Source: Pocillopora damicornis (taxonomy: Eukaryota). From it: 64,000 bases of DNA. Within the stretch, counting starts at the first letter, position 1. The number at the start of each line of letters is the position of its first letter. Both the position numbers and the translations under genes were made by a program. Below, in pieces: positions 32,901-35,258 of this stretch. The notes under the pieces were generated by a model. The model had not been told where the DNA came from and did no database searches. It saw only the letters and a program-made list of their open reading frames with translations. The stretch spans positions 124,001 to 188,000 of the forward strand of contig NW_020847410.1 of the NCBI RefSeq assembly GCF_003704095.1. Reading direction: 5' to 3'.

Positions 32901-35258
32901 TATGCAAAATCATTTTTTGTACTATTAGATGTAAAAAAAAAAGACACTTAAATTGTCATTATGAAACAGTTCAACACTACAAAAATACGAAAGGAAATAA
33001 AGAAATTTGAACGCCGCAAACAACCACACTGTAAAATTTAGTGTAAAACTGTGAAATTTTGGCGAATATTCTCTAAAAACTTTTTATTATTTTTTTTTTG
33101 AATGCTGCGTGCCGAGGTGTACTGTTTAACGTTAAATTTTAAATATCCTGTGTTCGTATATAGAGCAGAGTAGCACTCTTATGCTCATAATACCGGTTTG
33201 TCCCTTTTGTAGAAAAAAAAGAAGAGAAGAAAGCCACTATCACTCGCCAAAAAGCTCAGTGGGTATCGCTCCTCCTTTTCTGAAAGCTCCGACACCCAGT
33301 GCGCGGATACAGCGCCGAAAAAGAGAAAAACGTCATATACTCAATCCGGGAGGAATGAAACGGACAGCATCAAGCACACAGATCCAAATGTGAGGCAAGA
33401 TGTAAACATGCAACGAACTAATCTCAACACGAGTGGCTTAAACGGCATCGCCGAGGCAGCAAAAATGGCGTCTACATCTCTTAACGTCGTTTCGAATAGC
33501 ACGTTTGTGGCTCAATTAAGTGATGCTACTGTGAACCCTGAAACACGGGGTAGGTTTGAAGGAGCTCAGGGTCAGGATATTGTAGCAGACGGTTCTTCGG
33601 TCTCTCTGACTTCATGTGATGATTTTGTAATATTGCCAAATGTGGTTGGTAAAAGACCCGAGGAACTGCAAGATGAAGTTACCTCAAGTCTTTCGACAAA
33701 CAACGGTCTTGGACAAAATGCAGACTCTTTTGCAGGTGATGTTAGCATGTCTCCTTCCTCTGATGATGGAGGAGAATTCATGGATTTTGAACCAGCCGTT
33801 GGTGATAATTCTGTGGCTAATTCCCCTTTACCGTGCGAATCTGAACCTGCAACTGACTTGGTGGAACCATTTAAGTTTGGAGAAGCTTCGAGTGACCAAC
33901 AGTCATCCGCTGACCTAGTACGAAGGAACACTGAGGGTTCGCCTTTTAGAGTCGACGCGGAAATAATCTCGACTATGGTGACTACTGTATGTGTAAATGA
34001 TTTATTAGGAGACAATGACTCGGGTTGTTCGAACTCGTCCAAAGTTTCCAGTCCAGTTGATCAAGTGAAATCAGTTGGAACAAACAGTACCCAAAACATT
34101 GGTGGGAAAGGGATCATGGAATCCAGTGACATCCGTTCTTCAATGACGGGTGATAAAAACAATTCTGACGCATTCTGCTCTGTATCAGATGAAATAGCTT
34201 CGGTTTCGCAGCCTGGACCACCTCTTGGAGGTGACAATAACGTAGACGAAAACGGTGTCAGCGACAAACTTGCCAACGTTACAAAAGTCGTAGACTTCCC
34301 GGTTATGGACGATGTGCTTCAAATTATCGAAGAAGAAGAAGAAAACGAACATGACAGCGTTCGGTGTGGAAAAATTACTGACAGTAAGAGTGCTGATAAG
34401 GACGAGGTGGTGAGGATGGATAACCTAAGAGTCGATGATACTGGCTATAGAGTGGACATATGTATTGAAACACGGTTGATGAGTTCCACCAACCCGGGGG
34501 CGGAAGTCCCACACGGAAACGAGGGGGATGGAGAGTTACCGGAAGAGCAAGACATGGTAGATGATACTTTAAACGGTACTTCTCATCACGATAATATCGA
34601 TAGCGATGAAGAGGACATCGTTCTTTCAGAACTGGTGAAACGGTTACGAGACTCTAGCGAGCATAAGACCCGAGCAACGAGTGACAGAGAACACAAGGAA
34701 CAAAGCTGTTCAACTAGTTCAAACCGTAACACGAGACGAGGAGATGAAACATGTGGTCTGGGACGTGAAACAAGTCAAAGTGAGGGCAAGACGACGGTTA
34801 TTGAGAAAAATTCGCGGACGAAAAGTCCACAAATTGACTCAACCCGTGCCACTAACAGTGTGAACGACTCAAACTCCACCGCAGAAGTTGCTCCAGACAA
34901 AATTACCGTGGAAGTGATATCCGGGACACGTGAACGGTTTTGTAAGCCGAATTCAAAGCAGAAAAGTAAGAAAAATGTTGGTGTTCAACTAACCGAGAAC
35001 AAGTCCGCCTTGCGCACCCAAGCAAAACCTCTAGCCCCTCGGAAAGAAAAGTCTCCGAAAGGCGCCAGTCAAACTAATGTTAACAACTTGAAGGGTGACA
35101 ATTCTGGCTCGGGGAAAAGCAGGAATTCTGATATAATCGCGGGCAAGAAAGATGAATATGTCGGGGACGTTTCCAAAGCCAAGTTTCGAACTAAAGACAA
35201 TATTTTTGCCTTTGATGTGCAAACGTTGGAATTATTGTGGAATTTTAAGGGGAAGTGA
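26921..35258 (+). CDS. GTF3A: Transcription factor IIIA, 11 exons (26921-27019, 27785-27885, 28846-28933, 29483-29571, 30138-30214, 31038-31115, 31224-31270, 32135-32218, 32543-32638, 32761-32844, 33213-35258), 962 aa
   Basis: Nine tandem C2H2 fingers with TFIIIA-type sequences ([79 protein letters not shown]), followed by [10 protein letters not shown], equivalent to vertebrate SLASRL(T/S)GY. Splice phases are consistent and the last exon is in frame with ORF 33390..35258. Confidence 0.9.
27957..28353. mobile_element. Two adjacent TTAA-type MITEs sharing the TTAA at 28140-28143
   Basis: TTAACCCTTTAACTCCC...AAGGGTTAA followed immediately by TTAACTTTGTACACCCTAACATCAG...AAAGGGTTAA. Confidence 0.75.
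31583..31920. repeat. 22-bp minisatellite (GGTGCAATAGGCAGCTGCCAAT), ~15 copies, in GTF3A intron 7
   Basis: Head-to-tail units with no spacers; each has a palindromic GGCAGCTGCC core. Confidence 0.95.

Follow-up and report, generated by a model that had tools for sequence, protein, structure and literature searches.

The textbook description of TFIIIA is that of an essential factor with a length of about 300-430 residues. The window analysed here, a stretch of 64,000 nucleotides of Pocillopora damicornis DNA, contains a gene for such a factor in which the last coding exon (33213-35258, + strand) keeps its frame open for 681 codons and a stop. The locus raises the question whether this long C-terminal part genuinely belongs to the protein and what it might do there. 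The answer favoured on balance is a nine-finger coral TFIIIA of 962 residues to which the last exon adds a predicted disordered tether with three motifs likely to dock regulators.

The gene model consists of 11 exons between 26921 and 35258 that together encode the 962-residue protein, and all ten introns have GT-AG borders. Pattern matches place nine C2H2 fingers at residues 10-263 of the spliced product. Exon 11 encodes all of the 663 residues that follow LSGY, which makes the C-terminal extension of about 660 residues proposed in the first-pass annotation real. The parts of the gene are:

26921..27019, +, coding part of exon 1, finger 1 (RNA contigs, spliced model)
27785..27885, +, exon 2, finger 2 (RNA contigs, spliced model)
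28846..28933, +, exon 3, finger 3 (RNA contigs, spliced model)
29483..29571, +, exon 4, finger 4 (RNA contigs, spliced model)
30138..30214, +, exon 5, finger 5 (RNA contigs, spliced model)
31038..31115, +, exon 6, finger 6 (RNA contigs, spliced model)
31224..31270, +, exon 7, first half of finger 7 (spliced model, in agreement with the RefSeq model)
32135..32218, +, exon 8, completes finger 7 and begins finger 8 (spliced model, in agreement with the RefSeq model)
32543..32638, +, exon 9, completes finger 8 and begins finger 9 (RNA contigs, model, genome search)
32761..32844, +, exon 10, completes finger 9, then a linker rich in Pro (RNA contigs, spliced model)
33213..35258, +, coding part of exon 11: basic run, activation motif and 663-residue predicted disordered tail
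33240..33266, +, SLAKKLSGY, counterpart of the vertebrate activation motif (alignment; PMC6991959, excerpt)
35259..35829, +, 3' untranslated region, at least to 35829 (RNA contig ends at 35797-35829)

Intron 7 holds a 22-base tandem repeat of 15.5 copies (31582-31921), and high-copy dispersed repeats, to which thousands of reads fit partly before running off, lie at 27957-28345, 30740-30800 and 36140-36350. A gene with PAN and fibrinogen C domains (23997-26368, +) ends about 550 bases upstream of the TFIIIA start codon. Further downstream, an exon at 49516-49923 (-) that we take to resemble purple acid phosphatase gave no Pfam match, and from 52037 onward (+) there is a dynein heavy chain gene (DHC_N1, E 5e-6, below the curated cut-off).

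Aligned over its entire length, the spliced product has 98.3% identity with RefSeq XP_058957192.1 from Pocillopora verrucosa (961 aa); its identity with XP_022804081.1 from Stylophora pistillata is 77%. Exon 11 is present in 20 of the 24 listed sequencing runs, nine of which are on record as RNA, and eight runs were aligned. The junction 32844|33213 occurs in RNA contigs of runs X1, X7, X5 and X12, representing four studies, with X5 only presumed to be RNA. A single contig of 3476 nt (X7 record 7) runs from exon 1 through 33211-35829 and thus spans the entire coding sequence, differing from the window in the last exon by 16 letters and one 3-base gap. In the second set of aligned runs the 368-nt intron is the sole joint in all four, and no splice inside exon 11 was found among the joints listed for the first set, which includes X1 and X7 and in which a rare splice of this kind is still conceivable. 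Two runs whose kind is unrecorded (X15 and X16) read through this intron. Raw reads are thin: depth in X22 is about 1-6 per direction across exon 11, and those of X21 cover mostly the 3' half of the exon, on the strand expected for a + transcript. The indels listed comprise 3 bases within coding exon 11 and 1 or 2 bases in the intron and the 3' flank. The open last exon of 681 codons and the resulting length of 962 residues, both claimed from the DNA letters at first, are thereby borne out by the frame, the RNA contigs and the RefSeq match, and the RNA check suggested for the junction and the exon yielded spliced contigs in four studies and one contig covering all coding exons.

RefSeq isoform X2 of the P. 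verrucosa gene (P0059, 901 aa) is without fingers 1-2; its start, MLNTKER, matches an open frame in intron 2 at about 28608 of the window, where RNA depth is 0-0.22 in four runs. A seven-finger form would recall plant TFIIIA-7ZF. Two further proteins, P0119 from Montipora and P0038, begin at finger 5. One database protein (P0053) reads the TGA at 35256-35258 through as Trp, which probably reflects a gene caller working with another genetic code.

It is hardly credible that the tail is an artefact, whether from a fused gene model or from a 3' untranslated region that happens to be open in one frame, and at the RNA level this is refuted by the contig that spans the whole coding sequence. Two observations could be cited in its favour. 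The only short named coral TFIIIA, from Desmophyllum, has 309 residues, and in one of five metagenome loci (L006, 3-2058) the last exon of TFIIIA is interrupted by one stop and one frameshift. KGNPCHWPNN, the end of the Desmophyllum protein, resembles RNGNPYHWLNS, which is what the activation motif of L006 gives when read off-frame; the motif itself is thus absent from the Desmophyllum protein, which looks like a model error. As for L006, it may be a decayed duplicate, an allele or an assembly error, and its relatives P0038, P0050, P0101 and P0103, which are 83-93% identical, have open frames. This locus was excluded from the rate estimates and for now counts against the favoured reading. The conservation of frame and motifs described below also speaks against an artefact.

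Judged by its sequence, the gene is TFIIIA (GTF3A) with a canonical core. The identity given in the first-pass annotation holds, with nine fingers, the activation motif and nearest neighbours that are named TFIIIA. For the finger 8-9 region of the Oculina orthologue, the nearest atlas clusters are TFIIIA from plants and chordates (scores 0.94-0.95, 235-375 aa). The profile PF22110 scores above its cut-off in the Oculina and Desmophyllum orthologues and below it in those of Stylophora and Montipora; both the profile and the atlas tests used orthologues rather than the spliced protein of the window. In the PDB search, generic finger proteins scored above fingers 1-6 of Xenopus TFIIIA. The vertebrate Arg directly before SLA, which we take to be human R319, is absent in corals, where P-L or P-V is found (K-P-L/V-S-L-A versus K-R-S-L-A; 33213-33266). 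The vertebrate activation motif is printed as KRSLAShLsGYPPK in the excerpt of PMC6991959 that was consulted. Human R319 is described, in an excerpted source, as a disease hot spot at which transcription is lowered while DNA binding is unaffected, and in the C-terminal region of Xenopus TFIIIA a 14-residue stretch is required for transcription (PMC1950542, excerpt).

The long form appears to be the sole TFIIIA copy in the genome, as judged by sequence searches of an assembly that may be incomplete. The tail was found at one genomic place among three candidates scored and its terminal 34 residues at one place with one candidate scored, while exon 9 gave 72 bits at its own locus and 28 or less at nine others (30 candidates). 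A full-length 5S rRNA gene (L008:1501-1619, -, 100.5 bits), followed by a T-rich run, was the only one scored in the assembly (47 candidates scored).

A tail search gave 36 proteins among 7991 candidates and a finger search 11 among 106 long candidates, five of which are full-length or nearly full-length TFIIIA with the tail. Named long forms are known from Stylophora (961/962 aa), Oculina (1020 aa), Montipora (894/887 aa) and Porites (976 aa), and the tail occurs in about 25 further relatives, with a length of 588-804 residues among 32 tails. A tail profile run against 1.84 billion representatives rendered 19 matches, all coral-tail-like, in a search that unrelated long tails would escape. 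In a quick tree of 25 tails, Porites and Montipora are separated from the window, Stylophora and Oculina with SH-aLRT values of 96 and 98. This split corresponds to the known division of stony corals into complex and robust groups, so that the tail predates that division. P0056 (703 aa) lies outside both clades on a long branch; it has the most divergent tail, in which the activation, island 2 and terminal motifs are recognisable, and could mark the outer range of the tail. The suggestion that a lineage added the tail stands in so far as it is absent from chordate and plant TFIIIA clusters (235-375 aa), but the lineage comprises at least both main stony-coral groups and not one species. A search for short TFIIIA with fingers 6-9 gave three matches among 29 candidates: two coral models, one off-frame at the end and one partial, and one unrelated finger protein. 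This search was word-based with a reach that excluded anemone and vertebrate TFIIIA, on which it is mute.

The tail is biased in composition and not low-complexity. Ser makes up 13% and Asp plus Glu 17%, the net charge after the activation motif is -37 and the last fifth is basic, in line with the Ser/Asp/Glu-rich middle and basic end first noted. On the other hand, the label low-complexity was overstated, since only five of 669 12-residue windows have an entropy of 2.2 bits or less, the overall entropy is 3.99 bits and a repeat scan of the window found no tandem repeat within exon 11. The charge order is conserved, with a net charge of -20 to -76 in all 32 tails and a basic last fifth in 31. 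By entropy and repeats the tail does not resemble a low-complexity or condensate domain, while phase separation by charge is still compatible with it; no analysis here supports the RNP storage or condensate role first envisaged. The disorder assumed at the outset is predicted by AlphaFold2, run on the RefSeq protein with 28 aligned sequences. The fingers are folded, pLDDT is under 50 over nearly all of residues 270-940, and the only ordered segment in the tail is a helix at 949-958 predicted with moderate confidence (block means 64-72). A Pfam scan of the tail returned no family and a PDB sequence search with the last 34 residues returned no match at E up to 10; an atlas search with the last 62 residues gave no usable match, which is evidence of neither absence nor novelty.

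Overall identity of the tails is 21-45% outside the two nearest genera, and the alignment retains three islands. These and two other elements of the tail are:

33747..33800, +, island 1, SSSDE-x-MDWEP type, with Phe for Trp in the window; FSSSDEDGEGMDWEP in most relatives (CK2-type sites and aromatic-acidic motif)
34293..34343, +, island 2, FPGMDDVLQVIIEEEE; contains LxxIxE and acidic residues at 7-9 (putative site for PP2A-B56, resembles a SIM as well)
34599..34646, +, 16-residue motif of the first-pass annotation (only in the closest relatives, 4 of 32 sequences)
34962..34982, +, basic patch KSKKNVG, moderately conserved (alignment, dN/dS analysis)
35166..35255, +, island 3, terminal 30 residues (predicted helix over the last part)

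Motifs were counted in 32 tails selected to be diverse. Of these, 31 have island 1 (M-D/E-W/F-E), which in the window and in Stylophora carries Phe instead of Trp, 29 have island 2 (FPGMDDVL type) and 31 the terminal motif. Two interaction motifs had been picked out from the window alone: the C-terminal peptide proved to be a conserved candidate, whereas the 16-residue motif is confined to the four tails mentioned, and islands 1 and 2 had been overlooked. Kinesin-light-chain W-acidic or TFIIH-type motifs could fit MDWEP, where the window has Phe. The window tail holds 14 S/T-x-x-D/E (CK2-type) sites. Some tails (P0040, P0035, P0036, P0049 and P0018) contain internal duplications: Porites evermanni has two copies of island 1, three proteins carry two copies of island 2, and in P0018 a 44-residue unit is repeated.

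Selection was assessed on metagenome loci, five of which were taken from 56 pattern matches; the four with enough reach have finger exons upstream. In the four open loci (L002-L005) all 57 coding gaps are multiples of three, compared with 10 of 53 in the 3' flank (six non-independent pairs). When the islands are delimited from eight tails belonging to the other clade, dN/dS in these loci is 0.06-0.18 for the islands and 0.63-0.73 for the remainder, where the bootstrap upper bounds are 0.81-0.94 and the intervals lie under 1 in all six pairs. Among 44 Pocillopora-like proteins, 8 of 65 positions in the islands are variable versus 126 of 527 in the spacer. The 33 differences listed for exon 11 within the genus comprise 8 synonymous and 25 non-synonymous sites and no stops (pN/pS 0.9). 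By these rates the islands are under strong selection while the spacer drifts yet keeps its frame. When relatives are checked for the frame and the motifs, as first suggested, the frame and the islands prove to be retained, the spacer drifts and L006 is broken.

A tail that is mostly a tolerated, near-neutral expansion, for instance after an old stop loss or insertion, is unlikely; in such a tail stability or localisation would depend on the terminal peptide, the one part of importance, and the remaining islands would be there by coincidence. Such an origin would agree with the spacer dN/dS and the within-genus pN/pS, with the range of tail lengths and the internal duplications in P0018, P0035 and P0040, and with the loss of island 2 in P0054 and the broken L006 copy. 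It is difficult to reconcile with islands 1 and 2 in 31 and 29 of 32 tails at such low overall identity, with the island dN/dS, with spacer intervals below 1 in every pair and with a last fifth that is basic in 31 of 32. A frame that is held, islands that are kept and a spacer that drifts are together the signature of a motif-bearing disordered region, and because the strongest island comes last, the frame has to be open throughout. A tether carrying motifs is quite likely the right model for the tail.

The tether could work as follows. Exon 11 is spliced in, open and retained across both main stony-coral groups. From what is known of the family, fingers 1-9 would bind the 5S gene and 5S RNA and SLAKKLSGY would help the complex assemble; since neither has been lost, the tail adds to the protein without replacing a part of it. 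Selection holds the frame, the acid-then-basic order and the three islands while the remainder drifts. Island 2 would most likely recruit PP2A-B56; the phosphatase would then remove phosphates from CK2-type sites of the tail, including island 1, or from nearby Pol III factors. Island 3 would form a short amphipathic helix when bound to a partner.

The assignment of island 2 to PP2A-B56 is put forward tentatively. In the window the motif reads LQIIEEEEE, which has L, I and E at positions 1, 4 and 6, followed by acids at 7-9. According to the consulted part of PMC10970375, high affinity for B56 is determined by L at P1, I at P4, E at P6 and acids at P7-9. The pattern [LMFI]xx[ILV]xE with acids at P7-9 fits 28 of 32 tails. 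The stricter L-Q/E/R-V/I-I/L-x-E-E also fits 28 and none of 2000 shuffles of the window tail, a flattering rate because the pattern was written from the alignment, and a loose LxxIxE occurs in 53% of shuffles. Exceptions are P0017 and P0018, with Ala at the invariant P6, P0054, which is without island 2, and P0056, where it is degenerate; in the two Montipora proteins P4 is L and FPGMDD is lost. The region (645-675) has pLDDT under 50, i.e. it is predicted to be disordered. The conserved FPGMDDV ahead of LxxIxE is not accounted for by B56 binding.

Island 2 also resembles a SUMO-interacting motif, and it might as such tune an acidic middle that acts in cis as a nucleic-acid mimic and damps finger binding to DNA or 5S RNA. 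The net negative charge and conserved charge order of all 32 tails would suit a mimic, as would the SIM-plus-acid pattern in 29 of them. The SIM pattern is nevertheless found in 22% of shuffles, charge mimicry needs no invariant hydrophobic motifs and the full-length structural model predicts no ordered tail segment except the last helix, which makes the damping role very improbable.

Nuclear export signals follow the pattern hydrophobic-x3-hydrophobic-x2-hydrophobic-x-hydrophobic, and F-x3-hydrophobic-x2-L-x-L is present within the last 45 residues of 31 of 32 tails. The terminal helix might hence be a leucine-rich export signal and the tail serve shuttling or storage of a TFIIIA-5S RNA particle, for instance in the oocyte. 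A list of proteins whose export signal is hydrophobic includes TFIIIA (PMC2139834), and Xenopus oocyte TFIIIA forms a 5S storage particle (PMC4488245), both as stated in excerpts. The generic pattern, however, turns up in 72% of shuffled tails. Its spacing fails in Stylophora, where the second hydrophobic position is taken by Glu, and the invariant K-x-R and W-N-F exceed what an export signal, by the pattern given above, needs. In the consulted part of PMC6991959 the fish storage paralogue shows the opposite trend, being shorter (318 aa) and without the activation motif. We consider export or storage improbable as the reason for the tail.

The coral protein is a real, transcribed, stony-coral-wide variant of a known factor with gene models already in databases, and its tail most likely serves, to judge from sequence conservation, to tether docking motifs. 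Transcription factors often have disordered extensions peculiar to one lineage. A TFIIIA of about 900-1000 residues, close to threefold the usual size, with three conserved new motifs nevertheless points to a layer of 5S rRNA control unknown from model organisms; the short motifs are directly testable and the tail offers a coral-specific nuclear marker. It is rather doubtful that the stony-coral ancestor wired a whole signalling platform (a PP2A-B56 dock, a phosphorylatable acidic motif and a terminal helix) onto its sole 5S factor. If it did, there would be a phospho-switch over 5S RNA synthesis, and hence over ribosome supply, that is absent from vertebrates, plants and yeast.

A literature search on coral or cnidarian TFIIIA and its activation domain, covering titles and the openings of abstracts, gave no description of a long coral TFIIIA. 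The same long protein is already predicted in the database models XP_058957192.1, PFX17068.1 and XP_068718456.1, named 'uncharacterized', 'ZXDB-like' or plain TFIIIA, in which the tail and its motifs are unannotated and without a Pfam family; the long tail explains why these genes are filed under the first two names. Vertebrate and coral TFIIIA share nine tandem C2H2 fingers followed by the activation motif and differ in length, the coral protein having 962 residues compared with 367 in zebrafish Gtf3aa (PMC6991959, excerpt) and 296-375 in chordate clusters. In humans a frameshift extension of 64 residues destabilises TFIIIA (PMC13345412, excerpt), so long tails are not trivially tolerated everywhere, and corals carry 600-800 extra residues. 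The family has a precedent for a motif on a tether in Saccharomyces cerevisiae, where an 81-residue flexible linker with a short leucine-rich helix anchors TFIIIA on TFIIIC (PMC10245719 and PMC1950542, excerpts). That linker, one eighth as long, connects fingers 8 and 9, whereas the coral tail is situated behind the activation motif and, unlike the linker, has three islands without a Pfam or PDB match. A likeness of QTLELLWN to the leucine-rich NGLNLLLN of yeast was considered and dropped, as the match is too short and an activation motif already stands behind finger 9.

Among the papers listed in a literature search on PP2A-B56 motifs, none was seen to report LxxIxE in TFIIIA. The coral candidate has L, I and E at positions 1, 4 and 6, acids at 7-9 and predicted disorder, as do the LxxIxE regions of BubR1 (KARD) and RacGAP1 that bind PP2A-B56, and unlike these it is preceded by the conserved FPGMDDV.
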